A DNA stretch of 32,000 bases from Nostoc punctiforme PCC 73102. GTDB taxonomy: Bacteria; Cyanobacteriota; Cyanobacteriia; Cyanobacteriales; Nostocaceae. The stretch spans positions 7,230,001 to 7,262,000 of the forward strand of contig NC_010628.1 in assembly GCF_000020025.1 (NCBI RefSeq), written 5' to 3'. The notes beneath the pieces are model-generated. The model worked only from the letters and a program-made list of their open reading frames with translations, was not told the DNA's origin and ran no database searches. The position numbers and the translations under genes were made by a program. This document shows positions 12,959-30,662 of the stretch, piece by piece (the stretch's first letter is position 1; each line of letters begins with the position of its first letter).

Positions 12959-13158
12959 CTTAAGTTCTCCGTGTAGGCTGTTATGTATAACTGTTTTAAA
13001 TTCGGTGGAATACAGTAGGGGTGTAGAGCTGTACGCCTCTACCGGGTATCACATCCAAACAAGAACCGCTATCAAAGAAATTATCCTCTGAAAGGAATGC
13101 CAAAATATCTGTGTGTGGCTGTTATAGATTAATATCTGAGAATTCATGGGGACGAATT

Positions 13159-14096: not shown

Positions 14097-16295
14097 CTAC
14101 ATACGTTTTAAATCTTGTAAAACTGCGGCGGCTGATTGATAGCGATCGCTAAAATGATAGCAAACCATTTTATCTAAAATGACCGCCAATTCTTCCCTGA
14201 CTGGCACTGTTTGCCGCCACATCACATTCCCCGTTTCTGGATCTGGGTGGAGTTCTTGCGGTGGTATTCCAGTTATGGCTTGAATACCAATCATTCCTAA
14301 AGCGTAAATGTCACTGCATAGACGGGGATGACCGGCAAATTGTTCTGGAGGTGCATAACCCCGCGTCCCAATGGCTACTGTGGCTAATTCTGTTTGGTCG
14401 CTAGTCGGTGGTTGCATTAATTTGACTGCACCAAAGTCAATCAATACCAGCCGATTATCTTGAGCGCATCTAATAATATTAGTTGGTTTGATATCACGAT
14501 GAATCACTCGATGCTGGTGAACAAATTCTAGAACTTCTAAAACTTGTTTGAACATCTCTATGACAAATAATTCGCTTTGCACATCCTGTACAGGTGGTAA
14601 TTCTTCACTTAAAGTATGTCCTTCAATATATTGTTGAATTAAATAGAATTCTTGGTCATCTTCAAAATAAGCAAGTAATTCAGGAATCTGATGATGTTTA
14701 CCCAAAGATTCTAATATTTCAGCTTCACTATGAAACAATCTACGAGCAACTTGCAAAAATCGTGTATCTTGACGGGCTGGCATTAACTTTTTAACTACAC
14801 AAGTAGGATTACCCGGTCGTTGAGTATCCTGTGCTAAATAAGTGCGACCAAACCCGCCTGAACCAAGAACTTGAGACATTTTGTAGCGTCCACCCAAAAG
14901 CAAATCACCTGATTTTATTTCTGGTGAATCAATTGGAGCAGGAAAGTCAAGAGACGAATCGGGAATTGCGGTTTTGTCTTCTAAGAGTATATTTAATTGT
15001 GCGATCGCTTCTTGTTGTTTTTCAACTTGCAGAATAATCACCTGAGTTTGTCGCTGATTTTGGTAGCTAGTATAAGCAATTACACAAATACTACTAACAA
15101 CCAAAGTAAGAGCAGAGGGAATTAAAGGCACCCATCCAGCCTGCAAAAACAAACCAATGCAGATTCCTACTAACCCAAGTAGAGCTGTTCCTCCCACCAC
15201 TAGCAACAGCAAGGGATTTTGCCACCGCCATACGATAATTCCACCTAAAAGCGACCAGCCCCACATCCAAATAAATTCTACCCAGTCGGGCCAATACCAA
15301 ATTAAAGGTCGCCCATCCAACACTGTACTGATGAGTTGACTTGCTATCTGTGCATGAATAAACAGAGCAGGCATTCTGGCTGGTTGATCTGGCAAAGTGC
15401 TGTAGGGTGTATAAAATCCGCCTGGGGGTAAATTAGCCGCAGTAGTGCCGATAATTACAAGACGGTCTTTGAATAAACTGGAGTTAACTTGACCACTGAG
15501 GACTTGCGTAAGGGTTACTTGATCGGCAAAACTGTTAGGGTGACGATAATTTAATAATATTTGATAGCCATCTGTATCCAGATGTTGATAGCTACCGGAA
15601 TTAGGTTGTAAACGCGGAAAGAGGGTTTTACCTAACTGTAATTCTTTTTTATTAGTAAACTTGTATTCAATACCTTGTTTCTCTAGATAATTAATTCCTA
15701 TTAGCGCCCCAAAAGCAAATGATGTTGTACATTTATTGTCTGTAGAGTAAGCAAATAACAAACTACGACGGAGAATTTGGTCGTTTTCATTGTCAGAAAC
15801 AACATCGCTAAACCCAACATTATCTATAGGAAAATTGGGTGGTGGTGGAATTTCATCTCTACCCAAACTGCTGAACAAACAAGTGCTGACAATGTTATCT
15901 TGATTTTGAAAATTAATTGCCAAATTGTTATTTTCTGGTTGAAAAAGATATAAACCAACAATTCGCGGTTGATAAGACTCGATTTTTTTTAATAGCTGAT
16001 TAATTGTCCGATCTGATAAAGCCCATTTCTCTCGTTTGAGATCGTCGTCAGTGATTTTTACTAGTAAAATCCGCCGATCGGGTGCTTGTGCTGGACGCGA
16101 TCGCAACATTTCATCATAAACTCTTAACTCCCAAGGCTGTAACCATTTGAGTTCCCGAATTCCCCAGATAAACACGGTGACTCCCACACTGGTAACTAAA
16201 ATAATTTGCAACCAGCTTTTGTTGTTGGAAGTTTCACGGGAATCCTGAACTTTGACAAAAGGGACACGGAGTTTTTTTAATAGTCCACTAATCAC
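14097..16295 (-). CDS. CHASE2 sensor-domain Ser/Thr protein kinase
   Basis: N-terminal TM, an extracytoplasmic CHASE2-like region, then 3-4 TM helices. The C-terminal Hanks kinase (nt ~14097-14888) has GSGGFGRTY, VVKKL, HRDIKPTNI, DFG and GTRGYAPPE. The start codon at 16295 is GTG. Confidence 0.88.
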   Translation of the reverse strand: MISGLLKKLRVPFVKVQDSRETSNNKSWLQIILVTSVGVTVFIWGIRELKWLQPWELRVYDEMLRSRPAQAPDRRILLVKITDDDLKREKWALSDRTINQLLKKIESYQPRIVGLYLFQPENNNLAINFQNQDNIVSTCLFSSLGRDEIPPPPNFPIDNVGFSDVVSDNENDQILRRSLLFAYSTDNKCTTSFAFGALIGINYLEKQGIEYKFTNKKELQLGKTLFPRLQPNSGSYQHLDTDGYQILLNYRHPNSFADQVTLTQVLSGQVNSSLFKDRLVIIGTTAANLPPGGFYTPYSTLPDQPARMPALFIHAQIASQLISTVLDGRPLIWYWPDWVEFIWMWGWSLLGGIIVWRWQNPLLLLVVGGTALLGLVGICIGLFLQAGWVPLIPSALTLVVSSICVIAYTSYQNQRQTQVIILQVEKQQEAIAQLNILLEDKTAIPDSSLDFPAPIDSPEIKSGDLLLGGRYKMSQVLGSGGFGRTYLAQDTQRPGNPTCVVKKLMPARQDTRFLQVARRLFHSEAEILESLGKHHQIPELLAYFEDDQEFYLIQQYIEGHTLSEELPPVQDVQSELFVIEMFKQVLEVLEFVHQHRVIHRDIKPTNIIRCAQDNRLVLIDFGAVKLMQPPTSDQTELATVAIGTRGYAPPEQFAGHPRLCSDIYALGMIGIQAITGIPPQELHPDPETGNVMWRQTVPVREELAVILDKMVCYHFSDRYQSAAAVLQDLKRM

Positions 16296-17030: not shown

Positions 17031-17258
17031 ATGCCTGCAATCAAACAGCCAAGTATTGCACTATTGGTTCGTGAGACTCGTCAATACCTCAAACTATCAC
17101 AGGTAAAACTGGCAACGATGTTAGGGGTTTCATTCCACACTGTAAACCGATGGGAAAACGGACGAACACGACCTTCACCACTCGCTATGAAACAAATTGA
17201 AAAGTTACTATACCAGATGGGGGAATCCGGTGAGGCACTTTTAGCGAAATATTTTTAA
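17031..17258 (+). CDS. XRE-family helix-turn-helix transcriptional regulator (75 aa)
   Basis: LSQVKLATMLGVSFHTVNRWENGRTRPS is a canonical HTH_3/XRE motif. Confidence 0.8.
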   Translation: MPAIKQPSIALLVRETRQYLKLSQVKLATMLGVSFHTVNRWENGRTRPSPLAMKQIEKLLYQMGESGEALLAKYF

Positions 17259-17582: not shown

Positions 17583-18671
17583 CTATTTTTCACTTATCAG
17601 TGTTGGTGGAGTAATAGCTGCATATTCTTTGGATGTCAGCAGTGCTTCCTGAACATCAATCTTTTTGGGCAAGATTTTTTCGTTATAAAATAAATCGGCA
17701 ACACTTTGTTGAGCTTTCATCAACTCTGGATTAATTCCTTTTAATCGATAATTAGCGCGTCCAGAAATTATTTCTTGAATGGGTAAATCAATTTTAAGTA
17801 TGGGTGATATGAGTTTGGCTACTTCTTGACGATTTGCTTCCGCCCATTGACCATTTTTATCAATCTCTTCCAAGATAATCCGAAGTAATTCGGGATTTTC
17901 CTTAGCAAACTCCCGTGTTCCTACATAGTATCCGCCTGGAGTACCAATATTAGTAGCATCTCGCAGTACCCGCGCACCGTGGAGTTTTTCTACCAAAGCT
18001 AAATGAGGATCGCCAGTTACCCAAACTGGAATAGTGCCCTGAATAAATGCACCACGGGCTTCGACATTGGGCATACTCAGAACTTGAATATCATTGTATT
18101 TCAAGCCCACTTCTTCTAAAGCTTTGATAATGAAATAGTGAGAAGCTGAACCTTTTTGAAAGACTACTTTTTGTCCTTTGATTTGTGCTAAACTCTTAAT
18201 TGGAGAACCTTTAGGAACTACGATCGCACTCCCTTTCCCAGAAGTGGCAGTAATTCGTCTACCAGCAAGATAGACAATTCTTGCACCAGCAGCTTGGGCA
18301 AAAATAGGAGGGGTTTCTCCAACTGAACCAACATCAATTTTGCCGACATTCATCGCTTCTATGAGTTGCGGCCCTTGGGCAAATTGTGCCCATTCAACTT
18401 TCACACCCAAGGGTTCCAAACGTTTTTCTAAAACTCCTCTCACTCTAACTAAATCACCAGAACTTTGATATCCCATTCTCAGAAGTTTTGTTTTAAAACT
18501 AATGGTTTTTGTTGCTGCTGGATCTGCTTTTGGTTCGGTTGCGCTATTTATATTATCACTGGGTGATGTACAACTGGTTAGTGTGGTAGATAAAGCCAAA
18601 AAACCAGGCATTACAAACAATGCCAATCTTCTAATAATTGGTGATTTTTTTACTACAGTATTGCTCAACAT
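17583..18671 (-). CDS. SsuA/NMT1-type (aliphatic sulfonate family) ABC substrate-binding lipoprotein, copy 1
   Basis: Lipobox LTSC after an RR-containing signal peptide. Family-typical GYQSSGDL...WAQFAQGPQLIEAMNVGKIDVGSVGETPPIFAQAAGA. Confidence 0.8.
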   Translation of the reverse strand: MLSNTVVKKSPIIRRLALFVMPGFLALSTTLTSCTSPSDNINSATEPKADPAATKTISFKTKLLRMGYQSSGDLVRVRGVLEKRLEPLGVKVEWAQFAQGPQLIEAMNVGKIDVGSVGETPPIFAQAAGARIVYLAGRRITATSGKGSAIVVPKGSPIKSLAQIKGQKVVFQKGSASHYFIIKALEEVGLKYNDIQVLSMPNVEARGAFIQGTIPVWVTGDPHLALVEKLHGARVLRDATNIGTPGGYYVGTREFAKENPELLRIILEEIDKNGQWAEANRQEVAKLISPILKIDLPIQEIISGRANYRLKGINPELMKAQQSVADLFYNEKILPKKIDVQEALLTSKEYAAITPPTLISEK

Positions 18672-18762
18672 TTCTACAACTCCAGGCTAAATTAATCTCT
18701 GCTCTTAAGAAAAGATAAGTTTTTAAATTATTAAATTCAAGCTTGATAACTTTAATAATTTA

Positions 18763-19968
18763 CTATTTTGATTTAATTGATTCTGGTATAAAAGCCGCAT
18801 ATTCTTTTGGAGTTAATACACCATCTCTAACATTAACTTTCTTTGGTAAGAGTCCTTGGCTGTACCACAAATCGGCAATTTGTTGTTGCTTAGTGACAAC
18901 CTGTTCAGTAATTGGTAGCAACCCATAAACTGATTTAGCTTGAATCTCCTTCAAGGTAGGAACATCAATACCAACATCAGGAGAAACAAGTTCTGCTAAT
19001 TTATCGGGGTTCTTTTTAGACCACTCGTCTGCTTTTGTAAGCTCCTCCAGGAAAATTTTGAGAACTTCAGGATGCTCTTTTGCAAATTTACGCGAGGTAG
19101 AATAAAAGCTTCCAATATCCTGGAGTCCTTGCCCATCTATTAATACACGACCAATATTTTTTTGTATGGCTCTTGTAATATATGGTTCCCAAGTTACCCA
19201 AACATCAAGTCCACCCTGGCTAAAAGCAACATTTGCATCTGGAGGTGGTAAAAAAATAGATTGAACATCAGTGAGCTTTAGCTTATCTTTTTGTAGTGCT
19301 TTCAGTAAAACATAGTGAGCAATAGAAGCTTTTTGAAAAGAAACTTTTTTGCCTTTAAAGTCAGCAGCACTTTTAATTGGAGAGTTTTTTGGCACCAGAA
19401 AAGAAACTCCTCTACCATTAAATGCTGTAGTTACTACATAGACAAGTGGTGTACCTGCTGCTTGAGCAAATATAGGTGGTGATTCAGCTGTGGCTGCAAT
19501 GTCAAGAGAACCTGCGTTTAATGCTTCTAAAGCTTGCGGCCCAGCAGCAAACTCTAACCACTTAACAGTAAAATTCTTCGCTACCAAACTTTTTTCTAAA
19601 GTTCCTTGTTTCCTCATAACTGCAAGAGAACCAAGCTTAGAAGAAACAATTCGCACTTCTTGCTTTTGGGGAGTATTAGAAACTGATTGGCTTTGAGCTT
19701 CTGTACTAATTGGAGATGCTTCGTTTTGAGTTGTTTTATTTTCTTGGCTGCAACCAACTATGCTTATTGGGATTGTGAGAGAGAAAGCAGCTACAAGTAA
19801 AGATAAATAGTTACGTTCAATTTTATATTTAGCTTCTGCTTTGATAGCTAGGCTTTTATTAGATATCAGATTTACTGTTCGCAAAAAATGCTTTAAATTC
19901 TCGATTTTAGATTTTATCGGCTTGTTAATAGATATATGAGATTGCTGCAAATCTTTAAAAAATGCCAT
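18763..19968 (-). CDS. SsuA/NMT1-type substrate-binding lipoprotein, copy 2
   Basis: Lipobox IVGC. Family-typical WLEFAAGPQALEALNAGSLDIAATAESPPIFAQAAGTPLVY. Close paralog of 21433..22539. An unusually long Lys-rich segment of ~50 aa precedes the signal helix, so the true start is uncertain. Confidence 0.78.
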   Translation of the reverse strand: MAFFKDLQQSHISINKPIKSKIENLKHFLRTVNLISNKSLAIKAEAKYKIERNYLSLLVAAFSLTIPISIVGCSQENKTTQNEASPISTEAQSQSVSNTPQKQEVRIVSSKLGSLAVMRKQGTLEKSLVAKNFTVKWLEFAAGPQALEALNAGSLDIAATAESPPIFAQAAGTPLVYVVTTAFNGRGVSFLVPKNSPIKSAADFKGKKVSFQKASIAHYVLLKALQKDKLKLTDVQSIFLPPPDANVAFSQGGLDVWVTWEPYITRAIQKNIGRVLIDGQGLQDIGSFYSTSRKFAKEHPEVLKIFLEELTKADEWSKKNPDKLAELVSPDVGIDVPTLKEIQAKSVYGLLPITEQVVTKQQQIADLWYSQGLLPKKVNVRDGVLTPKEYAAFIPESIKSK

Positions 19969-20100
19969 AAAACTCTATTGTCTCCTTCAATAGAAAACTT
20001 TTTACTGTAATATTGTGTTTAACCAAATTGGTTATTAAATACAGTTTATATCTCAATACGGTTCAGTTAAGGTTAGCGCTCTTTGCCAAAGTCATTTTTT

Positions 20101-20147
20101 TTAATGAACCGCAGAGGCACAGAGTACACAGAGAGAATAAAGAGAAG
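20101..20147. repeat. Half-copy of the aacgaaccRcagaggcRcagag dispersed element
   Basis: ttaatgaaccgcagaggcacagagtacacagagagaat is similar to the left arm of the element at 23713-23843. Confidence 0.7.
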
Positions 20148-20531
20148 GGAAAAATTGCTTGATTGAACTGTATTGGTTTATATATTATCGGATTTGGTCT
20201 TGGAATAAAGTGTTAATAAACACTACCTGGCAGAGATAATAATATTTTTTGTAAATTTACTTTTGTGAGTGTGCTTTATCAATATTTATTTTACTAGCCA
20301 AAGGTAAAATAGAGTTTATATTTGGTTTTTTAAAAATCTGCACAACTCAAAAAGGTTTATTTACTATTATTAATATTAGGTTTCACGATAAAAAGAGATT
20401 ACTATATAGATCGTTATGATAAATTAGGGTTTTTTATTGTCTAGTTTAGGAACGAGGGTGGTAGTCATCCACCCTATCTTTAAAAGCAGATTTTAGGTTT
20501 TAAAAGCGTTATAACTGTCTAAAGAATAAAC

Positions 20532-21395
20532 CTAAAAAGGACGGCTACCTGCAAGACTAACTCGCTTCAAAACCCGTCGCTCATTTGGATCAAATGCTTG
20601 ACGGTAATGCAAGGTAGCTTGATTATCCCAGTAGACAATATCACCTACAGACCATTTATGTTGGTAGTAGAATTTGGGTTGATTTAGATGCTGGCGCAAC
20701 TGCTCAATCAGTTTAGATTCTTCTTCTGGCTCTAACCCGACAACTTCCACTTCTGTAGCTGCATCTAAGTAAAGATGCTTTTTACCACTTTCTGGATGTG
20801 TTCTAACTAAAGGATGGGGAAAGATCGGACTGATTAAAGGAATAGTTTTGTCTAAACGATATAAAGAGCGGGGTGCATTCCGATCTCGCAAAAATGGGTT
20901 GTAGGTAATCAACTGCAAATCTGCAATCCGTTCTTTGGTGGTTTCATCTAACGCCTCATAGGCCAAATTTGTATTTAACCAATAAGTATTTCCACCTTGA
21001 GAAGGTATTTCCAAAGCATAAAGCAGCGAACCACTAGATGGAGTGGGAGTCCATTTGTGGTCAGAATGGAAAGTTAGTTCTCCAGTACCGGTATAGCCGC
21101 CATCGACATTAGAAATCGGAATCACCACTGGGGTTTCTCCTGGTTTAGAAGCCAATACTGGAGTTTCATCAGATGGTACAAAGAGTGCGCCAAAGTAGAG
21201 AGAAAAGTTCAAAAGTTCTTTATCGGAGAGCTTTTGGTCTTTGAAAATTAAGATGTGGCGATCGCGCAGTGCTTGCTTAAGTTGTAATATAACTTCAGGT
21301 GCGATCGCTTGACTGGCATCAAGATCGGTAACTATCGTTCCCAAAGGAGCATCGATAGGACTTATTTTAACCTTGGTCAAAGTCGAGGTAGGCAT
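20532..21395 (-). CDS. TauD/TfdA-family Fe(II)/2-oxoglutarate dioxygenase (taurine/alkylsulfate dioxygenase-like)
   Basis: HxD iron ligands in TFHSDHKW. The distal motif VYWDNQATLHYRQ resembles the WDNRxxxHxA of TauD. It starts 37 nt downstream of the preceding binding-protein gene. Confidence 0.8.
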   Translation of the reverse strand: MPTSTLTKVKISPIDAPLGTIVTDLDASQAIAPEVILQLKQALRDRHILIFKDQKLSDKELLNFSLYFGALFVPSDETPVLASKPGETPVVIPISNVDGGYTGTGELTFHSDHKWTPTPSSGSLLYALEIPSQGGNTYWLNTNLAYEALDETTKERIADLQLITYNPFLRDRNAPRSLYRLDKTIPLISPIFPHPLVRTHPESGKKHLYLDAATEVEVVGLEPEEESKLIEQLRQHLNQPKFYYQHKWSVGDIVYWDNQATLHYRQAFDPNERRVLKRVSLAGSRPF

Positions 21396-21432
21396 AATAT
21401 TCTCCTGTCTTTTAATTTCTTCTTGGGTATAA

Positions 21433-22539
21433 CTACTTATTAGCTAATACATCTGAAGGAGTAATTTTGGCGTATTCTTCAGGCGTTAAAAAGCCATCTC
21501 TAACATTCACCTTTTTCGGGATAAGTCCGAGGCTGTACCACTTATCTGCAACTTCTTGTTGCTTGGTAATAGTTTTCTCAGTAATTGGTAACAACCCATA
21601 ATCATATTTATTGTGCATTATTTCTAGAGTCGGCGGATCTAGCTGAGTTACAGGAGCAAGCAGTTGTGCTACTTCTTTCGGATGATCCTTAGTCCAGATT
21701 TCTGACTTTTCTAACTCCTCTAAAAACACTTTGATTACATCAGGATGAGCCTGATAAAATTGGTGTGAAGTTGAGTAAAAATTGCCAGTATCCCGCAACT
21801 TATCACCATCTGCTAAAACACGAGCTATTTTATTTTGTACATTTCTGGTACCGAATGGCTCCCAAATATACCAAGCATCCACCTTATTTTGACTGAATGC
21901 TGCATTTGCATCTGCTGGTGCTAAAAAAACTGATTGGACATCGCTTAGTTTCAACCCTGCATCTTCTAATGCTTTAACTAATAAATAGTGCCCAATGGAA
22001 GCTTTCTGAAAAGCCACTTTTTTACCATTCAAATCAGTAACATTTTTAATTGAAGAATTTACAGGAACTAAAAGTGAAATAGCTTTACCACTAGGACGTG
22101 TAGTAGCTAGATAAACAAGGGGCGCTCCTGCTGCTTGTGAAAATACAGGAGGCGATTCGGCTGTAGATGCAATATCCAATCCATTCGCATTCAGGGCTTC
22201 TAGCTGTTGTGGCCCAGCCGCAAACTCAGCCCACTGTACTTTAAAACCCAGAGGCTCTAATCGCTTTTCTAAGGAACCCTGCTTTTCTAAAATTGCTAAA
22301 GCGGAAAGTTGTTTGGAACGTACAATCCGTACTACTTGCTTATCAGTTGACTTCTCTGTAGCGCTAGATGAAACTACTGATCCAGGGGAAGCTGCTGACT
22401 GTTGAGTGTTATTTTTGGCTTGACTACAACTTGATAGGGTCGTCGATAGCATTAAGCAGTAACCCAAAGCAAATAACAAAGAACGACGTGTTGTTCTGGG
22501 GCTTTTTCTGAATTCAAACTTTCCTTTTAAAGCTGGCAT
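21433..22539 (-). CDS. SsuA/NMT1-type substrate-binding lipoprotein, copy 3
   Basis: Signal peptide with TTRRSLLF (Tat-like RR) and lipobox LSSC. Family-typical WAEFAAGPQQLEALNANGLDIASTAESPPVFSQAAGAPLVY. Confidence 0.82.
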   Translation of the reverse strand: MPALKGKFEFRKSPRTTRRSLLFALGYCLMLSTTLSSCSQAKNNTQQSAASPGSVVSSSATEKSTDKQVVRIVRSKQLSALAILEKQGSLEKRLEPLGFKVQWAEFAAGPQQLEALNANGLDIASTAESPPVFSQAAGAPLVYLATTRPSGKAISLLVPVNSSIKNVTDLNGKKVAFQKASIGHYLLVKALEDAGLKLSDVQSVFLAPADANAAFSQNKVDAWYIWEPFGTRNVQNKIARVLADGDKLRDTGNFYSTSHQFYQAHPDVIKVFLEELEKSEIWTKDHPKEVAQLLAPVTQLDPPTLEIMHNKYDYGLLPITEKTITKQQEVADKWYSLGLIPKKVNVRDGFLTPEEYAKITPSDVLANK

Positions 22540-22678
22540 GGGTTGTTTTATTGATTTCCTTTAGGTGGTTAGAAAATGATGATTAATTGCAGTATCAAGA
22601 ACGAAAATGTTTTTTTGAAAACTCCAATCAGTAAATGTTTTTATAACTTCAAAAACTTTACTTATGAAATTAGGGAAG

Positions 22679-22774
22679 AGAGTGGGTATTACCCACTCTG
22701 CAACGACTCGAGGAACTGAAACTTTAATACTTAGGAGGCAAAAATTTAGGAAATGGAGTGAGAAAGGCTCACTC
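22679..22774 (-). other. Two perfect stem-loops in the methyltransferase / binding-protein intergenic region (possible terminators or RNA elements)
   Basis: The first is agagtgggt-att-acccactct at 22679-22699. The second is ggagtgag-aaagg-ctcactcc at 22754-22774. Both lie downstream of the stop at 22841. Confidence 0.3.
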
Positions 22775-22840
22775 CAGTGTCGTGCTAGTGGAAGATTGAA
22801 ATTTTTGAGTGAAACTCTGTTTTGTCAGCGTTCAATTTTG

Positions 22841-23662
22841 CTAGTGCTTGCAAGCGACTAGGATTGTAGCTTTGAGTTCTTCTGTAAAATGTCCAGATGG
22901 CTCAACTGCTAGCAGCGCTTCTCTGAGATCCTTTTCAAATGCTGGAGCTTTATCGCCATAGAAAATTTTCAGAGAGAAGGCTGTAGTGTATAAATAGCCG
23001 AGATAACTATCGATAGTCCAAGATTTTTCAAATGGCACTTCATAGTTTTCTTGACGAGCAAAAGCCGAATTGCCAATGACGACTTCATGGGGAGGATCGA
23101 CTGGCTTACGAGTTCCTTGTCCTTGTTGTCCAGTCCGTCGTTCTTCACCTAACCATTTTTTTACTACTCCAACAGCAGCTTGTTTCCAAGGTAGATTGCT
23201 TTCCCAAGGGTTGTCACCAGTCTGAAGCAGTGCTAATCCACCATCATCAGTTAGCAATTCATAAAGGCGTTCAAGCACTAATTCGCGTTCCATCCAGTGG
23301 AAGGCTCTACCAATAGTAGTTAAGTTAAATTTCCCTAAACTAGAGTCGATTAATTCTGCTCCTTGTTCTAACCAAGTAATATTATTTGCTCCGACTGCTG
23401 CTGCTTGGCGTTTAGCTTCTGCAATCATTTCTGGATCGGGATCGATCGCAACAACTTCTTCAAATTGGGTTCGTAGGGGAATTGAAATTAATCCTGGGCC
23501 GGTACCTAAATCGAGGAGTCGTCCTTGACCATTGAGATTAAATATTTCGGCTAGTTTATCGAATACAACAGGTGGGTATTTGGTTCTATATTGAGCGTAG
23601 CCCTCAGCGGCTCCCTCAAATAAACTTGGGTCGTAAGTTGGAAGTGTTTTTAGTTGAGTCAT
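22841..23662 (-). CDS. Class I SAM-dependent methyltransferase
   Basis: Motif I LLDLGTGPGLISIPL, followed by an acidic residue in VVAIDPDPEM. Confidence 0.8.
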   Translation of the reverse strand: MTQLKTLPTYDPSLFEGAAEGYAQYRTKYPPVVFDKLAEIFNLNGQGRLLDLGTGPGLISIPLRTQFEEVVAIDPDPEMIAEAKRQAAAVGANNITWLEQGAELIDSSLGKFNLTTIGRAFHWMERELVLERLYELLTDDGGLALLQTGDNPWESNLPWKQAAVGVVKKWLGEERRTGQQGQGTRKPVDPPHEVVIGNSAFARQENYEVPFEKSWTIDSYLGYLYTTAFSLKIFYGDKAPAFEKDLREALLAVEPSGHFTEELKATILVACKH

Positions 23663-23712
23663 ATCAATTTTGGATTTTGGTAAGGGATTTCCAAGAAATA
23701 ATTTATTTATCC

Positions 23713-23843
23713 AAATAAACGAACCACAGAGGCGCAGAGAACGCAGAGAGAGGAGAAATAGAGAGGATCTTTACGTCGGTTTTTGGGGTATTTTTTTAAC
23801 TCTCATTTCTCCGTGTCCTCTGCGCCTCTGCGGTTCGTTATTT
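23713..23843. mobile_element. 131-bp MITE-like element with ~35-bp imperfect terminal inverted repeats
   Basis: Left arm: aaataaacgaaccacagaggcgcagagaacgcagagag. Right arm: ctccgtgtcctctgcgcctctgcggttcgttattt. Single arms also occur at 20101 and 27258. Confidence 0.7.
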
Positions 23844-23978
23844 AAGAGAAATGTAGAGTGGGCAAGGCCCACGCTACAAGTGAACAGAGGAAATGGAACA
23901 TGGAACGTTGTAAAGATGGGCATTGGTCATTGAGAATGGGGCATAGTCATTCTTTCCCTACTCCCCATTCCCCATTTC

Positions 23979-25478
23979 CTATTTCCCAGCTAGATATTCG
24001 TTTGCGGCTTTCTCAACACCTGTACCTTTGAAGAAGTCTTGATTGAGGCTGGTGTACAACTCCAAGGGATGGATGGAGAGGAAGTAGCGGAGGTCTTCTT
24101 CGGTAATGATTTCGCGTTCTGCCATTGAGTAAGCGTTGGCGGTGACGGCGGTGATATCAGGCACATCCCAGTGACCGGAATCTGAACCCAAGAAGGCTTT
24201 AATGCGTTGGCTTTGCCCGCCGTAGGCATCGCCGAAGGGATTAGCTGCACGATTAAAAGCTTGGCTGACACGGGTATCGTCTGATTCTGTACCGAAGTAG
24301 AAATGATTCAAGAAGCGATCGCGCACATCTTCTGGTTTCTCTATTCCCGCTAGTTCAAATTCGTCGAGTTCACCCGGATTTTCTGGAGCTAATAGTTGAT
24401 GGTGGAATCCTAAACCGTCACCAATTTTATCTAAGCGTCCATCTACCAGTTCGCTACCGTAGCGAGTATATAACTCTACTAATGCTTCCTTGTCGATAAT
24501 AGCAGGATTGTTATTTGATAACAAATGTTGTTTGTTGCGGGTTTCCCAATGCCAAATAATATCAGCGTATAGACTAGCACCCCAAGCGGAACCACCTTCC
24601 AAAAAGGCAAATTTTAATTGCGGAAAGCGGTGGGTAACTCCACCAAAGAACAGCGATTTGCATAATGCTTCTGCTGCAAAGGCAAAGTGATTAATGTGAT
24701 TGTACTGGGCGTTGGTGACAGAACGCTGAGTTGTCCAACCTTGGCTAGAAGCGTGGGTTGTGGGTACAACTTTCAGTTCTACGCACTTAGCCCAGAATGA
24801 ATCGTAATTATACTCGCTATCTAAGCCAAAGTTATCAATCCAAACCACTTCGTTAGCGACTTCTTTGCCGTATTTTTCAAAGGCAGGAATTGGACGACGA
24901 ACGTAACCAGGGATTTGAATTGCTTTGAGTCCTAAAACATTCACTGCATATTCCAACTCTTCAATCCCTTCTTCGGGAGTGTGTAGGGGAATGGCGGCAA
25001 TGGGTGTTAGGCGATCGCTATAAGGACGGAAAATATCAGCATGGTAAGTATTAACTGCCCGACAAACAGCCCGCCGCATTTCTTCGTTGCCGATATTTGG
25101 GGCCATTGTTGCCAAATTGGGGTAGACAACGGCAAAGTCTGTACCTGCTTCTTCCAAGCGCTCATGCAGCAACTTGGGTAAGCTAATGGTAGCCAAATTC
25201 AAAGTATTTTTAGTTGGACGACCCCACCAGTTAGGGCGATTGGTGCGATAAGCAAAACGTTCTTCCCAACTTTGCTTGTACCACTTAAAGCGGGAAGATC
25301 CTGGCAAATTCTCTTTGAAACGTTCAACAAGTGCAGTTCCACCAACTTGCTCTAAATAATCCAAGACTGCTGGTTCAAATTCTTGGGTATGTACATCGGT
25401 GTCAATGATCGGATAACCAAGTTTTTCCCGAATTTGAGCAGACCTGGTTTTTTGTGGGCGGTCTAGAGCGATCGTCAT
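23979..25478 (-). CDS. Amidohydro_2-family metal-dependent hydrolase/decarboxylase-like protein, paralog B (499 aa)
   Basis: N-terminal IIDTDVHT metal-site motif and C-terminal FLGSDSGHWD (strand-8 Asp context). About 80% identical by eye to the upstream paralog. Confidence 0.75.
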   Translation of the reverse strand: MTIALDRPQKTRSAQIREKLGYPIIDTDVHTQEFEPAVLDYLEQVGGTALVERFKENLPGSSRFKWYKQSWEERFAYRTNRPNWWGRPTKNTLNLATISLPKLLHERLEEAGTDFAVVYPNLATMAPNIGNEEMRRAVCRAVNTYHADIFRPYSDRLTPIAAIPLHTPEEGIEELEYAVNVLGLKAIQIPGYVRRPIPAFEKYGKEVANEVVWIDNFGLDSEYNYDSFWAKCVELKVVPTTHASSQGWTTQRSVTNAQYNHINHFAFAAEALCKSLFFGGVTHRFPQLKFAFLEGGSAWGASLYADIIWHWETRNKQHLLSNNNPAIIDKEALVELYTRYGSELVDGRLDKIGDGLGFHHQLLAPENPGELDEFELAGIEKPEDVRDRFLNHFYFGTESDDTRVSQAFNRAANPFGDAYGGQSQRIKAFLGSDSGHWDVPDITAVTANAYSMAEREIITEEDLRYFLSIHPLELYTSLNQDFFKGTGVEKAANEYLAGK

Positions 25479-25544
25479 GATAGTTTACCCTAAATTATTC
25501 AAATGTTTGTAGGGATTGGCAAAGACCCAGAATCAATCCTTTGT

Positions 25545-25569
25545 AGAGACGGCGATTTATCGCGTCTCT
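25545..25569 (-). other. Stem-loop abutting the stop codon of paralog A (agagacgGcga-ttta-tcgcgtctct)
   Basis: A 10-bp stem with one bulged G and a 4-nt loop. It lies in the 90-nt gap between the two amidohydrolase genes and resembles a dispersed Nostoc-type hairpin. Confidence 0.45.
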
Positions 25570-27077
25570 TAGCTTAATTTCCCAGCCAAAAATTCATCTG
25601 CGGTTTTCTCCACAGCCGTACCCTTAAAAAAGTCACGATTCAGGCTGGTGTACAACTCCAAGGGATGAATTGACAGAAAATATTGCAAATCTTCTTCGCT
25701 GATAATCTTGCGTTCTACCATTGAATAGGTATTAGCTGCGATCGCAGTAATATCAGGTACGTCCCAATGACCGGAATCAGAACCCAAAAATGCTTTAACT
25801 CTATCGCCATAAGGGTTAGCTTTCCGGTTAAAAGCTTGAGCTACACGGGTATCATCGGATTCTGTGCCGAAGTAGAAATGATTCAAGAAGCGATCGCGGA
25901 TATCCTCTGGCTTCGTTACTCCTGCAACAGCGAATTCATCCAAATCACCTGGTTCTAGGGGAGATACTAAGTCAGCGTGGAAACCTAAACCACTGCCTAG
26001 TTGATCCAAACGACCATGTACTAATTCACCACCATAGCGGGTATAAAATTCTAGCAGTTCTTCATAATTAACATTGGCAGGATTGTTATTTTCCACCAAA
26101 TGATCTTTATTGCGAGTATCCCAGTGCCAAATCAAATCGGTGTACAAACTAGCACCCCAAGCTGCACCTCCTTCTAAAAAGGCAAACTTGAGTGTGGGGA
26201 AGCGGTGAGTTACACCACCAAAGAATAAAGATTTACATAGTGCTTCCCCAGCCGATGCAAAGTGACCAATATGGTTGTATTGGTAATTGCTAATGGAACG
26301 CCGATTGATCCAGCCCATACCGGAAGAGTGGGTGGTGGGGACAACTTTCAGTTCTACGCACTTCGCCCAGAAGGGATCGTAATCATATTTACTATCTAAG
26401 CCAAAAGTGTCAATCCAGATGGCTTCGTTGGCTACTTCTTCGCCATACTTCTCGAAGGCGGGAATTGGGCGGCGGACATGTCCGGGGATTTGAATAGCTT
26501 TGAGTCCCAGCACTTTCACCGCATATTCCAATTCTGCGATCGCCTCTTCGGGCGTATTCATGGGAATAGCGGCAATGGGTGTTAAGCGATCGCTATAAGA
26601 GCGGAAAATATCAGCGTGATACGTGTTAGTTGCACGACAAACAGCTCGCCGCATCTCTTCATTGCCGATGTGTGGAGCCATCGTTGCCAAGTTGGGGTAC
26701 ACAACGGCAAAGTCTGTACCAGCTTCTTGCAAGCGTTCGTGCAGCAACTTCGGCAAACTAACGGTGGCTAAATTTAAAGCGTCGTTAGTGGGACGAGTCC
26801 AGAAAGGAGGGCGGGCGGTGCGGTAAGTGCGGCGTTCATCCCAAGATTGCTTAAACCATTTAGAGCGAGATGCACCGGGTAAGTGTTCTTGAAAACGCTG
26901 TGCGATGCCTTCGGCAAGAGCAAAGCTCAACGCAGTTCCAGCAACTTGCTCTAAATAATCCAAGAATGCTGGGGGAAACTCTTGGGTATGCACATCGGTG
27001 TCAATGATCGGATAACCTAGTTTTTCCCGAATTTGAGCAGACTTGGTTTTTCTGGGACGGTCTAATGCAATAGTCAT
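25569..27077 (-). CDS. Amidohydro_2-family protein, paralog A (502 aa from the internal ATG)
   Basis: MTIALDRPRKTKSAQIREKLGYPIIDTDVHT aligns with the N-terminus of paralog B, so the start at 27077 is preferred over the ORF-track start at 27119. Confidence 0.75.
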   Translation of the reverse strand: MTIALDRPRKTKSAQIREKLGYPIIDTDVHTQEFPPAFLDYLEQVAGTALSFALAEGIAQRFQEHLPGASRSKWFKQSWDERRTYRTARPPFWTRPTNDALNLATVSLPKLLHERLQEAGTDFAVVYPNLATMAPHIGNEEMRRAVCRATNTYHADIFRSYSDRLTPIAAIPMNTPEEAIAELEYAVKVLGLKAIQIPGHVRRPIPAFEKYGEEVANEAIWIDTFGLDSKYDYDPFWAKCVELKVVPTTHSSGMGWINRRSISNYQYNHIGHFASAGEALCKSLFFGGVTHRFPTLKFAFLEGGAAWGASLYTDLIWHWDTRNKDHLVENNNPANVNYEELLEFYTRYGGELVHGRLDQLGSGLGFHADLVSPLEPGDLDEFAVAGVTKPEDIRDRFLNHFYFGTESDDTRVAQAFNRKANPYGDRVKAFLGSDSGHWDVPDITAIAANTYSMVERKIISEEDLQYFLSIHPLELYTSLNRDFFKGTAVEKTADEFLAGKLS

Positions 27078-27149
27078 AGGTTCTACCTGATTTTTCAATT
27101 GGATTGGGTAGATAGTCAATGCTGATTCAGAAGGTTGTTTACTCTCTTC

Positions 27150-27254
27150 TCAACAGCAATTCTTTTGAAGAAGTTGGGATTTTTCTTTATATGTGGCGTG
27201 ATTAGTAAAGATAAAATCTCGAAAATCAGCTTCACTGATAATTTCCTTCTCCAT
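27150..27254 (-). pseudogene. C-terminal remnant of a third amidohydrolase-like gene
   Basis: MEKEIISEADFRDFIFTNH... aligns with MAEREIITEEDLRYFLSIH / MVERKIISEEDLQYFLSIH of the two intact paralogs. The frame begins 3 nt from the dispersed repeat at 27258. Confidence 0.45.
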
Positions 27255-27257
27255 AAA

Positions 27258-27295
27258 TTCTCTCTGCGTTCTCTGCGCCTCTGTGGTTCGTTAAA
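27258..27295. repeat. Half-copy (right-arm orientation) of the aacgaaccRcagaggcgcagag element
   Basis: ttctctctgcgttctctgcgcctctgtggttcgttaaa. Confidence 0.7.
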
Positions 27296-27323
27296 AAAAC
27301 TTTAATCAACAAGATAAATAAAA

Positions 27324-28384
27324 TTAATGCGGCTGTTCATTAACAACCCAATCTGTTAATTTAAAGTCCGACTTTGCTAAACCCTGCGAGACTAAAAATT
27401 TCTTCGTCCCCTCTAAAAGTTTCACTCCCTCGGCTGGTAATGGTTCTTCTGATACCTGTTTGAGTGGGAACGATACTTTTATAATATCGATGGGATATTT
27501 AGTAATTTGAGCATGATACTGATAATCTTCTTCAGAATTAGCTTTTAAATCCTTCGCTGCTTCTGTCATGTCAGAATTGCATTAAATTTTTCTGGGAAAT
27601 CAGGCTGTTTCACCAGAAAACTTTCAGTTGCGACAACTAATGATGTCCCTGATAGACCCTGATGATTTGCAGAAGAATCAATCACTGGAAACCCTTGCGA
27701 TTTCAAATAAGGCCCCATATCGCTAGACGTTGCATAAGCTGCTACATCACCACGTTCTAAAGCCGCTTTTGCCTCAGTAGTCATCAAGTGGACAACTTTT
27801 ACATCTTTGGCAATTTTAGCTTCAGCTAATAGACCCAGCAGGTATCTATGCATATAAGAACCTTTTTTAGTAGCTATTTTTTGACCCTTAAGTTCAGCAA
27901 GCGATCGCGGCCCATTTTTTTTCGCCACCAACCAGGCGGTTGTATTAAATTGGCTAATCCTTAACAACCGGGTTTCCTGACCCCTAGCTTTCAAAACTAT
28001 GGCTGGTGTATCCCCTAAAGAACCAACATCTAATTGTCCAGCGACAAGCGCCTCATTTAGATTCGGCCCATTAGGAAACCTTGCAAAAGTAATGTTTTTA
28101 AATCCTGCTTTTTGCAACTCACGATCTAAAATTCCTTTTTTCTTGGCCCAACCCAGCGATCCTGTAGGTTCTGAATTACCTACATAACCTATTCGTAGGG
28201 TAGAAATGTTGTTAGATGCAACAGCATTATTCACATTAATAGCCTCAATGGATTGAGCAGATTTAGTTTTGTCTTGGCTACACGCTGTAGTTAGTAGCAG
28301 TAGAATACAAGCCACTGAGGTTGATAATCTGGAAGTAAATTTATTTTTACTGATAGAACCTGTTCCTACTTTGAACGACAGCAT
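27324..28384 (-). pseudogene. SsuA/NMT1-type substrate-binding lipoprotein, copy 4, split by a frameshift at ~27566-27569
   Basis: ORFs 27566..28471 and 27324..27569 are colinear with one paralog: ...FLVKQPDFPEKFNAILT|TEAAKDLKANSEE... versus ...FAKEHPEVLKIFLEELTKADEWSKKNPDK.... The junction is ACATGACAG. The likely start is the ATG at 28384 (MLSFKVG..., lipobox TTAC). The upstream part of the ORF-track frame runs through a repeat element. Confidence 0.6.
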
Positions 28385-28430
28385 GACTTTTTTCTCCGCC
28401 GTACTATACGCCGTGTGTAACTTTCTCTCA

Positions 28431-28672
28431 GACCTAACCCCAACCCCTTCCCTACAAGGGAAGGGGAGCAAGAATCAAAGCCTCTCTACCTGTGCTGTGG
28501 GGGCTGCGGTGTATACACAAGTCTGAAATACCTGATGAATCTGGATTTTACCCCACCCTAACCCTCCCCTTGGAAACGGGAGGGAACTAGATTTCCTATT
28601 TCCCCCCTTTATAAGGGGGGATTAAGGGGGGTAATTCGAGTTGTGTAACACCGTAGCCCTGTGGGGGAGAGG
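28431..28672. repeat. Nest of miniature hairpin repeats
   Basis: The ccccttccct-aca-agggaagggg copy is at 28444-28466. Imperfect inverted repeats (ggctgcggtgtatacacaagtc / gagttgtgtaacaccgtagcc) flank two internal hairpins: ccctcccc..gggaggg and cccccctttataagggggg. Confidence 0.7.
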
Positions 28673-28713
28673 AATGGAAGCAGGTTTCTAAGGATAAGTT
28701 GCACATTGCATTA

Positions 28714-29043
28714 CTATTTCATCTGCTTCAGAATTTGGAATGTTTGATCCGCTTTTGCTGTTGATGTACGTTTGTGTCCCCAACCGATTTTTTCCCGATA
28801 ACTACCCAGTAGCCCAACTTGTGCCAATTCTGCCTCGTTGACTGAAGCCGTCACATCGCTTTCTGGTGCAACATAAAGAGCATCAACTGGACAATACAAT
28901 TCGCACATATAACAGGTTTGGCAGTCACTCTGTCGAGCAATGGTTGGCGGCGCATCAGCTATACGGTCAAACACGTTGGTTGGACAAATATTCACGCAGA
29001 TATTACATTTTATGCACCGCGATTCGCTGACCAACTCAATCAC
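28714..29043 (-). CDS. 2x[4Fe-4S] ferredoxin-type protein (109 aa)
   Basis: CIKCNICVNICP and CQTCYMCELYCP. The GTG start overlaps the upstream stop by 4 nt (GTGA). Confidence 0.85.
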   Translation of the reverse strand: MIELVSESRCIKCNICVNICPTNVFDRIADAPPTIARQSDCQTCYMCELYCPVDALYVAPESDVTASVNEAELAQVGLLGSYREKIGWGHKRTSTAKADQTFQILKQMK

Positions 29044-30662
29044 ACTGCTGCTCCTATTTTAGATAAAGGCTTTTCTGTACTTAGTGGCTGATTCTTCACC
29101 CAGACTCGATCTAATCCGCCACTAATCAGGTGATGTTGCAGGTTAGCATCAAGTTCTGGATAGTCTTGATGTTTGTGCATACCACGAGTTTCTTTACGTT
29201 CAATGGCACTGCTATACATCCATCGTGCTGTGGCTACCATTGCCGTAGCTTCTCGCGCCCGGATTAGCTCTTTATCTGATGTTACCTGGCTACTGCGGAG
29301 TTCTTGCCAAAGATAATTTAGCTTACCCAAAGACTCAGTTAAGCCTTGTTCTGTACGGAAATAGTTCTTTTCGTAAGGGAATACTTCGGCTTGGACTGCC
29401 TGAATAATTTCATCAGTTGCCAAGGTTTGAGAGCGATCGCTCCCACTCTGTAATCCTACCTCTCCAACACCCTTAACATGGCGTTTAGTTTTGTATTCTC
29501 CCAGACTGCGGCTATATTCGGCAGCCGATTTCCCCGACCAATAGCCAGAAGATATTGCCCAAGCCGCGTTGTGACTACCACCGCCAGTAAATCCGCCACA
29601 AATCAGTTCCCGTGTAGCGGCATCTCCAGCCGCATAGAGTCCCCGTACAGAACTGGCACAACTCTCATCTACAATCCGAATTCCACCCGTACCGTGCACA
29701 GTTCCTTCTAGGCGCAGAGTCACAGGAAAACGTTGAGTAAATGGATCGATACCTGCACGGTCAAAGGGTAAAAAGAAGTTGGGCTGTGCTAAACGCATAG
29801 ATGGCCGCATCGATTCTGCCGCTTTGTCTATGATGGCGTAAACTGGCTGTTGTAGTAATGTCTGAGCAATTACTGACCGTCTATGAGAACTTGCCCCCGG
29901 AATCACAGTACCGTCTTCGTAGGTGAAGGTTGCCCAATTATAAAACAGGGTTTTGGTGACTGAAGAAAAGGCGGGAGAGATGCCGTAAGCATTGGAAAAT
30001 TCCATACCCGACATCTCGGCTCCAGCTTCTGCCGCCATCAGATAACCATCCCCTGTCAGGACGTTGCATCCTAACGCTTTACTGAGAAACGCACAGCCAC
30101 CAGTTGCGATAATTGTGGACTGCGATCGCACTATCCATTTACTACCTGTCTGACGGTTCACACCTGTTGCACCAGCAACAGCATCATCGTCATCTACCAG
30201 TAGTTCTAAGGCGGGGCTGTTATCTAAAATCTTGACTCCTGCCCGTTGAATTTGTCGCCGCATCAGCCGCATATACTCAGGCCCTTGCAGCGATCGCCGG
30301 TAGGGTTTGCCTTCATCGTCGGTAGGGAAGGGATAACCCCACTCTGCTAACTGATTGACGTTTGCATAGGTCCGATCCAGTACTCGATCCATCCAATTGC
30401 GATCGGACAAAAACCCACCCAATGATTCCCGACTCGCCTTTGCAGTTTCTCGTGCTTCTGGATCGGGTGGCACATACCACACACCATTACCAGATGCCGC
30501 AGCACATCCAGTCGTACCACAGTATCCTTTGTCTACGAGGATAACTCTAGCTCCACTTGATGCAGCACTCCAAGCCGCCCAAGTTCCAGCTGGCCCGCCT
30601 CCAATCACAAGCACATCTGCTTCTAAGTCGAGTTCAAAATCGGTTGTTAACGTCTTCAGCAT
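29040..30662 (-). CDS. FAD-dependent oxidoreductase of the SdhA/FrdA/NadB/AprA flavoprotein superfamily (540 aa)
   Basis: N-terminal DVLVIGGGPAGTWAA dinucleotide fold. C-terminal ERKETRGMHKHQDYPE resembles the RxESRGxHxRxDYP motif of this superfamily. Confidence 0.8.
   Translation of the reverse strand: MLKTLTTDFELDLEADVLVIGGGPAGTWAAWSAASSGARVILVDKGYCGTTGCAAASGNGVWYVPPDPEARETAKASRESLGGFLSDRNWMDRVLDRTYANVNQLAEWGYPFPTDDEGKPYRRSLQGPEYMRLMRRQIQRAGVKILDNSPALELLVDDDDAVAGATGVNRQTGSKWIVRSQSTIIATGGCAFLSKALGCNVLTGDGYLMAAEAGAEMSGMEFSNAYGISPAFSSVTKTLFYNWATFTYEDGTVIPGASSHRRSVIAQTLLQQPVYAIIDKAAESMRPSMRLAQPNFFLPFDRAGIDPFTQRFPVTLRLEGTVHGTGGIRIVDESCASSVRGLYAAGDAATRELICGGFTGGGSHNAAWAISSGYWSGKSAAEYSRSLGEYKTKRHVKGVGEVGLQSGSDRSQTLATDEIIQAVQAEVFPYEKNYFRTEQGLTESLGKLNYLWQELRSSQVTSDKELIRAREATAMVATARWMYSSAIERKETRGMHKHQDYPELDANLQHHLISGGLDRVWVKNQPLSTEKPLSKIGAAV

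Follow-up and report, generated by a model that had tools for sequence, protein, structure and literature searches.

The 32,000-nucleotide stretch of the Nostoc punctiforme PCC 73102 genome analysed here (NC_010628.1, positions 7,230,001 to 7,262,000 of the forward strand; hereafter the window, with positions counted from its first letter) carries ten co-directional minus-strand genes at 17583-30662, including a frameshifted binding-protein gene and an amidohydrolase remnant. Judged from its sequence, this block is very probably the binding-protein/enzyme arm of a divergent ssu/asf/tau-type locus for sulfonate-sulfur assimilation, and we propose that sulfur limitation and/or association with a plant may be the condition in which the locus is used. 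Loci of this type, the organism and the presence of multiple binding proteins are already known; the clade to which the twin PF04909 proteins of the block belong is uncharacterised. A preliminary description of the same DNA had given the series and order of the minus-strand genes, which were reproduced in a map of open reading frames (ORFs) annotated with Pfam and NCBIfam. In transcription order, with SBP denoting a solute-binding protein, the block comprises:

29040-30662, minus strand: asfA-like flavoprotein binding flavin adenine dinucleotide (FAD), 540 aa (FAD_binding_2 and Succ_DH_flav_C)
28714-29043, minus strand: asfB-like 2x[4Fe-4S] ferredoxin, 109 aa (Fer4 families)
27324-28384, minus strand: SBP4, divergent SsuA/AsfC-like lipoprotein binding protein, pseudogene (ORFs 27566-28471 and 27324-27569, NMT1/SsuA type)
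27119-27290, minus strand: remnant of a PF04909 gene, third copy (match to the family hidden Markov model, HMM)
25569-27077 (ORF 25569-27119), minus strand: PF04909 protein A, 502 aa, B2JA97/ACC84172 (Amidohydro_2)
23979-25478, minus strand: PF04909 protein B, 499 aa, B2JA96/ACC84171 (Amidohydro_2)
22841-23662, minus strand: class I S-adenosylmethionine-dependent methyltransferase, ACC84170 (Methyltransf_25/12/11)
21433-22539, minus strand: SBP3, SsuA-family lipoprotein (TIGR01728)
20532-21395, minus strand: TauD/TfdA-family Fe(II)/2-oxoglutarate dioxygenase, ACC84168 (PF02668)
18763-19968, minus strand: SBP2, SsuA-family lipoprotein (TIGR01728)
17583-18671, minus strand: SBP1, SsuA-family lipoprotein, ACC84166 (TIGR01728)

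SBP1, SBP2 and SBP3 scored 199, 225 and 233 bits, respectively, with the SsuA_fam model TIGR01728 (cut-off 163.5), and the scores of the binding proteins with the taurine, urea, phosphonate and SaoX models of NCBIfam were far below the cut-offs of those models. SBP4 and its intact orthologue scored 117 and 133 bits, respectively, with TIGR01728, both below the cut-off. The organosulfur-scavenging gene set suggested in the preliminary description, for which a profile search had been named as the check, was thus borne out: SBP1-3 fall within the sulfonate family, and a nitrate, bicarbonate or thiamine role was rejected by the NCBIfam scores. All four proteins carry a lipobox (SBP1 LTSC34, SBP2 IVGC73, SBP3 LSSC38 and SBP4 TTAC35), SBP3 is 56% identical to SBP2, and SBP1 exactly matches N. 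punctiforme ACC84166.1, named 'putative aliphatic sulfonates-binding protein'. The frameshift in SBP4 was confirmed: compared with its intact orthologue in Nostoc sp. C110, the gene has gained 5 bp by an insertion near 27569, and the same split occurs in an independent read-assembly contig (Logan L002). The intact C110 orthologue, of 350 aa, lies at 12126-13178 of locus L005. The gap between asfB and SBP4 (28480-28700) contains G/C-run hairpin-like sequence (ccccccttataaagggggg, aaggggagggttagggtgggg) that looks like a miniature inverted-repeat transposable element insertion, and C110 lacks 70 bp near 28411.

Pfam and NCBIfam scans found no ATP-binding cassette (ABC) ATPase, permease, SsuD or SsuE encoded in the 32-kb window. 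The earlier statement to this effect thus holds for the window but not for the locus: only 1.3 kb upstream of the flavoprotein gene the window ends, and the ssu arm lies past that end. The glycosyltransferase family 2 (GT2) gene at the right end of the window is ACC84175 (exact protein match); ACC84168 and ACC84170 likewise match the TauD-family protein and the methyltransferase exactly. Among the consecutive N. punctiforme accessions, ACC84177 is a SomB/OprB-type porin, and ACC84179, four accessions after the GT2 gene, bears the name 'aliphatic sulfonate ABC transporter permease SsuC'; these two proteins share 90% clusters with the porin and SsuC of Nostoc sp. C110. The adjacency of the ssu arm in PCC 73102 is taken from this accession order together with synteny to C110, in which one strand carries two D-2-hydroxyacid dehydrogenases, ssuB, ssuC and ssuD, and the other carries the porin, VTT, GT2, asfA, asfB, an SBP, two PF04909 genes, the methyltransferase, an SBP, TauD and an SBP. 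The C110 flavoprotein is 95% identical to that of the window, and the SBP4 region is 92% identical in DNA. C110 SsuD scored 600 bits with TIGR03565 against an equivalog cut-off of 518, C110 SsuC scored 349 bits against 347, and C110 SsuB scored 359 bits, below its cut-off of 395. SsuD is found at the syntenic position in other Nostoc loci as well, and from this synteny and the accession slot we infer that ACC84178 would be SsuD, probably Npun_F5882. The preliminary description had named gene-neighbourhood conservation across Nostocales as a check, and the gene order proved identical in 11 or more Nostoc loci. The GT2/VTT insert is missing from Calothrix PCC 7507 and an Oscillatoriaceae genome, which otherwise share the divergent core.

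The tempting notion that the binding proteins are true orphans with a transporter encoded elsewhere, or that they serve a non-sulfur nutrient (nitrate, bicarbonate or a thiamine precursor), is contradicted by these results, and we regard it as highly improbable. No transporter gene lies in the 32-kb window, and NMT1-type folds serve other solutes too; however, SsuC (ACC84179) is only four genes past the right end of the window in the same genome, ssuDCB is syntenic in C110 and other Nostoc, and SBP1-3 pass SsuA_fam while falling far short with the models for the other ligands.

Two further observations concern the ssu arm. In cyanobacteria, one or two D-2-hydroxyacid dehydrogenase genes are kept either where the ssuBC arm ends or behind asfB (L005 1-1322, L006 2484-4731 and L007 12359-13306). 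In addition, the Logan read-assembly contigs L001 and L091-L094 all end upstream of the VTT/DedA gene, at a distance of about 290 bp, suggesting a repeat between this gene and the porin gene.

The flavoprotein belongs to the Sdh/Frd/Apr/NadB superfamily (Pfam FAD_binding_2, 4.7e-25; Succ_DH_flav_C, 1.1e-11), and its stop overlaps by 4 bp the start of the ferredoxin, which has the motifs C10-x2-C-x2-C-x3-CP and C41-x2-C-x2-C-x3-CP. In tblastn searches of plasmid and chromid records, the flavoprotein was 61.7% identical over 97% of its length to the sole homologue that Cupriavidus metallidurans CH34 has on its chromosome 2, whose partner ferredoxin (111 aa) is 53% identical with the same 4-bp overlap and whose pair adjoins an NMT1-type ABC importer. 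The CH34 genome paper names this pair AsfA/AsfB (Rmet_4334/5), 'a reductase-ferredoxin' for aromatic desulfonation (PMC2864759). By these similarities the Nostoc pair is assigned as AsfA/AsfB orthologues, the link to the Pseudomonas putida prototype resting on the CH34 annotation in PMC2864759. According to PMC4267179 and PMC2864759, the asfRABC genes of P. putida S-313 (Vermeij 1999) are an arylsulfonate tool-kit complementing ssu, and the role given to AsfAB in both sources is electron transfer in an oxygenolytic reaction. Homologues of AsfA with 53-64% identity were also found by tblastn in replicons of Azospirillum, Shinella, Bradyrhizobium, Burkholderia, Paenibacillus and actinomycetes. 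An SBP gene directly after asfB occupies the asfC-type position (SBP4, frameshifted here and intact in C110); neither the window nor the set of called genes in L005-L007 includes a LysR-type asfR. The preliminary description knew the combination of genes as no described pathway; the flavoprotein, ferredoxin and SsuA-like binding protein, however, reproduce the asfABC arrangement, and the expansion of SsuA together with TauD and SsuD in symbiotic Nostoc has already been published.

A fumarate reductase or aspartate oxidase identity was rejected, since the residues key to FrdA and NadB are missing: the flavoprotein lacks FrdA His44 (covalent FAD), has Tyr for His232 and Gly for Arg390, and most cyanobacterial orthologues have Arg at the position of His355. 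Besides FrdA, it matches the alpha subunits of phosphoadenylylsulfate (PAPS) and adenylylsulfate (APS) reductases. The AlphaFold2 (AF2) model of the flavoprotein was poor, with a predicted local distance difference test (pLDDT) of 53 from a shallow cyanobacterial alignment. AsfAB might itself be a sulfur-releasing enzyme, in which an AprAB-like flavin-sulfite adduct and reduced ferredoxin would cleave a sulfonate or sulfate ester; the superfamily membership, the reductase matches and the loss of the FrdA/NadB dicarboxylate-binding residues are consistent with this. Calothrix sp. PCC 7507 (L006, CP003943 1340496-1362124) encodes AsfAB and SsuBC together with four SsuA proteins, the methyltransferase, a porin and two 2-hydroxyacid dehydrogenases, and within 10 kb there is no gene for SsuD, TauD or a PF04909 protein, raising the question of what cleaves the C-S bond there and again suggesting AsfAB as the enzyme. 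Nevertheless, the literature assigns AsfAB to electron transfer (PMC2864759, PMC4267179), and we consider a catalytic AsfAB unlikely. An Amidohydro_3 (PF07969) protein adjoins asfAB in CH34 (L090 10036-11709) and directly follows the PF04909 gene in the Binatia loci L047, L051 and L067, together with two luciferase-like monooxygenases (LLMs); it may be another recurrent partner.

PF04909 proteins A and B, which exactly match ACC84172.1 and ACC84171.1, respectively, are 77.3% identical to each other and are kept side by side across Nostocales. Their Amidohydro_2 matches have E-values of 3.4e-14 (A) and 6.4e-11 (B), with 53.7 and 43.0 bits against the Pfam cut-off of 26.4. The amidohydrolase remnant noted in the preliminary description proved real: at 27119-27290 on the minus strand, the family HMM gave two matches in different frames, to profile positions 435-461 and to 463-485 (E-values 3e-5 and 6e-3). 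The remnant represents approximately the last 50 codons of a third PF04909 gene and is frameshifted as well. It contains, at 27147-27181, the third copy of a repeat family (D5).

PF04909 includes decarboxylases, hydratases and lactonases along with amidohydrolase-related dinuclear oxygenases, or AROs, namely AibH2, PtmU3, DitZ and SfbO (Rittle lab; Hibi 2021). SfbO is a sulfonate beta-monooxygenase that hydroxylates aminoethylsulfonates and binds sulfate in its active site. AROs have been defined by a beta1 D-x-H motif plus a C-terminal D-x-P-H-x-D/E loop, and approximately 17,000 sequences with the motif were gathered (Liu et al., PMC13154177). We propose, from ligand conservation, fold and gene context, that the twin proteins are candidate ARO-like dinuclear (Fe/Mn) oxygenases. 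Their clade (about 490 aa; about 950 clusters at 50% identity, E<=1e-30) extends through Cyanobacteria, Bacillota, Proteobacteria, Binatia, Acidobacteria and Chloroflexi. In a 58-sequence alignment (52-96% identity), D26, D28, H30, H250, E302, D434, H437, W438 and D439 were invariant, and D-x-D-x-H was present in 84 of 87 diverse full-length representatives. Protein A has D28-V29-H30 and D434-S-G436-H437-W438-D439, and the metal ligands of AibH2 are Asp25, His27, His211, Glu265, Asp337 and His340. In phmmer alignments, E302 ('FAFLEGG') corresponds to AibH2 Glu265 ('MFVEGN'). H250 aligns with the beta5 metal His174 of ACMSD, and E302 replaces the catalytic His224 of that enzyme ('FAHGG' to 'FLEGG'). 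In the AF2 model of protein A (pLDDT 87.6), the predicted ligands lie at the ends of strands 1, 5, 6 and 8, with D28-V29-H30 within strand 25-31 and H250 after strand 247-249, and the top Foldseek match in the PDB was SfbO (8SM6), followed by PtmU3, AibH2 and DitZ, at a probability of 1.00. The sequence similarity to SfbO is insignificant (E 0.29), and searches with short N- and C-terminal PF04909 fragments against the PDB for an SfbO alignment gave chance matches only.

The C-terminal loop of the clade reads S-D-x-G-H-W-D. Gly occupies the ARO Pro position in 115 of 116 close homologues and Pro in none (0/116); among the 87 diverse representatives the residue is Gly in 68, Ser or Ala in most others and Pro in none. 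The three metal-interacting residues Asp, His and Asp are kept despite this replacement, and the Trp after the loop His stands at the gamma4 position, which contacts sulfate in SfbO. Since Pro is replaced clade-wide, the published signature does not fit the clade, whose members cannot have been counted in the approximately 17,000 collected sequences. In the ARO, asf and Nostoc literature compared, a large ARO-like clade with an altered signature and ties to sulfur scavenging is not described.

Alternatively, the pair may be a non-redox hydrolase, hydratase or decarboxylase, acting on the carbon skeleton after desulfonation or desulfonating hydrolytically like 4-sulfomuconolactone hydrolase, a PF04909 enzyme (Halak 2007, as described in PMC13154177). 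We hold this to be possible, if on the doubtful side. ACMSD is the best PDB sequence match (2.4e-10). Decarboxylases and LigJ have Foldseek scores near those of the AROs, so the fold alone does not decide. The defining ARO Pro is absent, no Rieske ferredoxin gene of the kind that low-potential AROs have lies adjacent to the pair, and the D-x-H/His/Glu/Asp set of AibH1 can hold a single Zn. However, characterised hydrolases and decarboxylases do not use the beta1 D-x-H (Liu et al., PMC13154177). The pattern that this source gives for non-redox members, with a characteristic beta1 motif that is not D-x-H and with a beta6 catalytic His, differs from the D-x-H and Glu found here, the Glu being at the position of ACMSD His224 and aligned with the AibH2 ligand Glu265. 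Furthermore, the second-site residues His437 and Asp439, missing in AibH1, are invariant in the clade.

The gene context of the clade was surveyed in 79 loci, one genome per species (32 cyanobacterial and 47 other), by searching six-frame ORFs within 10 kb with HMMs. At least one SsuA-type SBP, LLM monooxygenase, TauD or acyl-CoA dehydrogenase (ACAD)-like gene was found in 29 of the 32 cyanobacterial and 29 of the 47 other loci, and a 2[4Fe-4S] ferredoxin and flavoprotein lay directly upstream of the clade genes in 21 of the 32 cyanobacterial loci and in 1 of the 47 others. The arrangements vary: Nostoc, Calothrix and Heteroscytonema have asfA-asfB-(SBP)-PF04909x2; Tolypothrix, Aulosira and Scytonema have PF04909-SBP; Achromobacter has PF04909-SBP-permease-ATPase-LLM; Variovorax paradoxus has LysR, PF04909, SBP (4-bp overlap), two permeases, ATPase and TauD; Bacillus benzoevorans has a PF04909 gene divergent from an ssu-like operon and beside TusA/DsrE genes; and a Pseudanabaena plasmid has a PF04909 gene with sulfonate SBPs, TauD, LLM and cysTW. 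In the last three, annotated operons are available. Several of these arrangements appear independent of one another. We put forward, tentatively and with considerable doubt, that the B2JA96/B2JA97 clade may consist of unrecognised two-metal oxygenases attacking organosulfonates for sulfur assimilation, with AsfAB as their electron source in Nostocales.

Beside this clade, a second PF04909 clade (about 50% identical) adjoins an NtaA/DmoA-type LLM monooxygenase gene in cyanobacteria, directly downstream in most loci (L062, L063, L071, L072, L074, L076 and L084; second copies in L033, L035 and L031, the last being the same region as L010), suggesting a two-enzyme module. In many Nostoc strains an ACAD-like gene lies between PF04909-B and the methyltransferase (L012, L014-L017, L023, L024, L032 and L034, at about 13.2-13.6 kb); its family includes SfnB/DszC-type sulfur-scavenging flavoenzymes. 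This gene is absent between PF04909-B and the methyltransferase in PCC 73102, where the gap is 317 bp and carries a dispersed repeat.

The TauD-family protein (PF02668, 2.1e-53) has the triad H110-x-D112...H263, and its closest solved structures are the TauD proteins of P. putida and E. coli, followed by TfdA and sulfate-ester dioxygenases. It scored 151 bits against a TauD equivalog cut-off of 313, so that its substrate is not assignable. The methyltransferase had only generic NCBIfam and PDB matches; it is present in 16 of the 79 clade loci, all cyanobacterial, and also in the Calothrix locus that has no PF04909 gene. After its initiator, the TauD-family protein has no Cys or Met in 287 residues. 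Cys plus Met amounts to 0.5% in SBP2 and 1.1-1.6% in SBP3, the methyltransferase and the PF04909 proteins, as against 2.4-3.1% in most flanking genes. A low Cys and Met content is the composition expected of proteins made under sulfur scarcity.

Considering these results, we propose the following scenario for the locus. The four lipoprotein SsuA paralogues, one now a pseudogene, would capture different organosulfonates and may pass these on to the single SsuBC, which they would share and which is encoded on the opposite strand, about 4-8 kb upstream, beside the porin and SsuD. Sulfite may then be released inside the cell by parallel oxygenases, namely SsuD, the TauD-family dioxygenase and the twin PF04909 proteins. 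The PF04909 pair might hydroxylate a C-H next to, or one carbon from, the sulfonate, as ligand conservation, fold and gene context would suggest. The AsfA/AsfB-like pair may feed electrons to an oxygenase of the locus, after the literature role of AsfAB, and the methyltransferase may modify a substrate or product.

Several points weigh against this scenario. The SsuD identity of ACC84178 rests on synteny, not on its own sequence, and neither the window nor the genes called in L005, L006 and L007 within 10 kb include one of the SsuE/FMN_red type. AsfAB lies beside the PF04909 clade in 21 of 32 cyanobacterial loci but in only 1 of 47 others, and occurs without the clade in Calothrix PCC 7507 and the Oscillatoriaceae genome; as the two are neighbours chiefly in cyanobacteria and AsfAB is also found alone, a dedicated AsfAB-PF04909 partnership is no more than possible. 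Decarboxylases, LigJ and ACMSD score close behind the AROs by both fold and sequence, and the clade departs from the published ARO signature at the Pro position, with D-x-[G/S/A]-H-[W/F/Y]-D instead of D-x-P-H-x-D/E. The SBP4 pseudogene and the PF04909 remnant indicate that the island is partly decaying in PCC 73102. Finally, Stuart et al. (2020) note that Nostoc living with moss lacks a signature of sulfur limitation and that induction does not extend to SsuD itself.

The symbiosis literature bears on the locus. Of the families that symbiosis-competent Nostoc differentially retains, TIGR01728 is reported to be the most abundant, with 4-11 copies; all facultative symbionts keep alkanesulfonate monooxygenases and a TauD, and sulfonate transporter and monooxygenase gene families are reported to be upregulated on moss contact (Warshan 2017/2018; Stuart 2020). 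The mutant of SsuD (Npun_F5882) loses colonisation of moss (Stuart 2020). Term searches of these papers found no 'amidohydrolase', 'succinate dehydrogenase' or locus tags of the block, and around Npun_F5882 the supplements and full texts gave no locus tags beyond that gene. Rather than sulfur nutrition, the role of the island in plant symbiosis might be to recognise or turn over a sulfonated signal that comes from the host: the SsuD mutant fails to colonise moss while colonising cells lack the sulfur-limitation signature, signalling was raised by Stuart et al. (2020), and SsuA copy number tracks symbiotic competence (Warshan 2017/2018). We think this quite unlikely, given that the sulfur-poor protein composition points to use in sulfur shortage and that homologous sets occur in free-living bacteria and, beside cysTW, on the Pseudanabaena plasmid.

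A dispersed repeat of about 34 nt occurs within the island as an inverted pair:

23705-23852, no strand assigned: inverted pair of the dispersed repeat AACGAACCACAGAGGCGCAGAGAACGCAGAGAGA (repeat search)

Further copies lie at 20102-20134 and 27259-27292, so that three intergenic gaps of the island contain it in all. This element probably belongs to the small mobile or dispersed repeats of Nostoc, and its copies may mark points of rearrangement. Promoter and terminator scans of the window gave no excess over shuffles, leaving operon boundaries undefined, and an Rfam search of the window found no riboswitch or other RNA. With no polyketide synthase or non-ribosomal peptide synthetase in the window, a natural-product cluster was rejected. 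Outside the island, an 841-aa protein (10433-12958, minus strand) joins a cyclic-nucleotide-binding domain and a sigma-54-interaction AAA+ module with lid to a C-terminal Fer4_5 (NapH/MauN-like membrane Fe-S) domain, a fusion that is unusual for a cyanobacterium. A CHASE2 Ser/Thr kinase (14097-16295, minus strand), a small XRE-type helix-turn-helix protein just downstream of SBP1 (17031-17258, plus strand), a DUF4351 protein (8707-9564, plus strand) and a 1151-aa HEAT-repeat protein (4941-8396, minus strand) appear unrelated to the island.

Compared with the ssuEADCB operon of E. coli and P. putida S-313, the Nostoc locus has binding proteins above the SsuA-family cut-off with SsuC and SsuB adjacent, next to an SsuD that is bona fide in C110 and predicted in PCC 73102, and its purpose, sulfite for cysteine synthesis, would be the same. 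It differs in being split into two divergent arms rather than forming one operon, and in having four SsuA paralogues per SsuBC, no SsuE seen, and an attached dedicated porin and two D-2-hydroxyacid dehydrogenases. With tauABCD and AtsK-type dioxygenases it shares a PF02668 protein with the H-x-D...H triad, nearest to TauD, but that protein is below the TauD equivalog cut-off and no dedicated TauABC accompanies it.

The asfRABC set of P. putida S-313 comprises an approximately 60-kDa Sdh/Frd-like flavoprotein, a coupled approximately 12-kDa 2[4Fe-4S] ferredoxin and then an SsuA-like binding protein, whereas the Nostoc window lacks the LysR-type asfR, has its asfC-like gene as a pseudogene in PCC 73102 and continues with two PF04909 genes and the methyltransferase. 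The host here is moreover a cyanobacterium, and two reviews that cover asfA, one of them PMC4267179, list it for Proteobacteria and Actinobacteria only; the redox pair in this model-strain locus thus stands in a phylum that they do not list. The Nostoc pair shares with AROs the PF04909 TIM barrel and the conserved ligands (D-x-H on beta1, His on beta5, Glu on beta6, Asp on beta8 and His/Asp in the loop), with SfbO as the top structural match of protein A, but is longer (about 490-500 aa versus about 350-420), and the clade has Gly, Ser or Ala for Pro. If the clade does consist of such oxygenases, the boundary of the dinuclear-oxygenase superfamily would be larger, and the clade would be a candidate for the partner oxygenase of AsfAB in the arylsulfonate system, an acceptor that is unnamed in the asf literature compared.

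The published aliphatic-sulfonate families associated with symbiosis come from the same organism, and the present block probably lies, from accession order and synteny, in the same chromosomal neighbourhood as Npun_F5882; the term searches of those papers found transporters, monooxygenases and TauD, and no mention of an amidohydrolase or of the flavoprotein. Sulfonates are a dominant form of soil sulfur and a proposed payment of moss to nitrogen-fixing Nostoc. The model-strain locus, to which the SsuD needed for colonisation probably belongs, also holds an AsfAB-type pair and two enzymes with a full dinuclear-oxygenase ligand set; if the oxygenase assignment is true, these two enzymes would be candidates for processing the host-supplied sulfonate 'currency' of the Nostoc-plant symbiosis.

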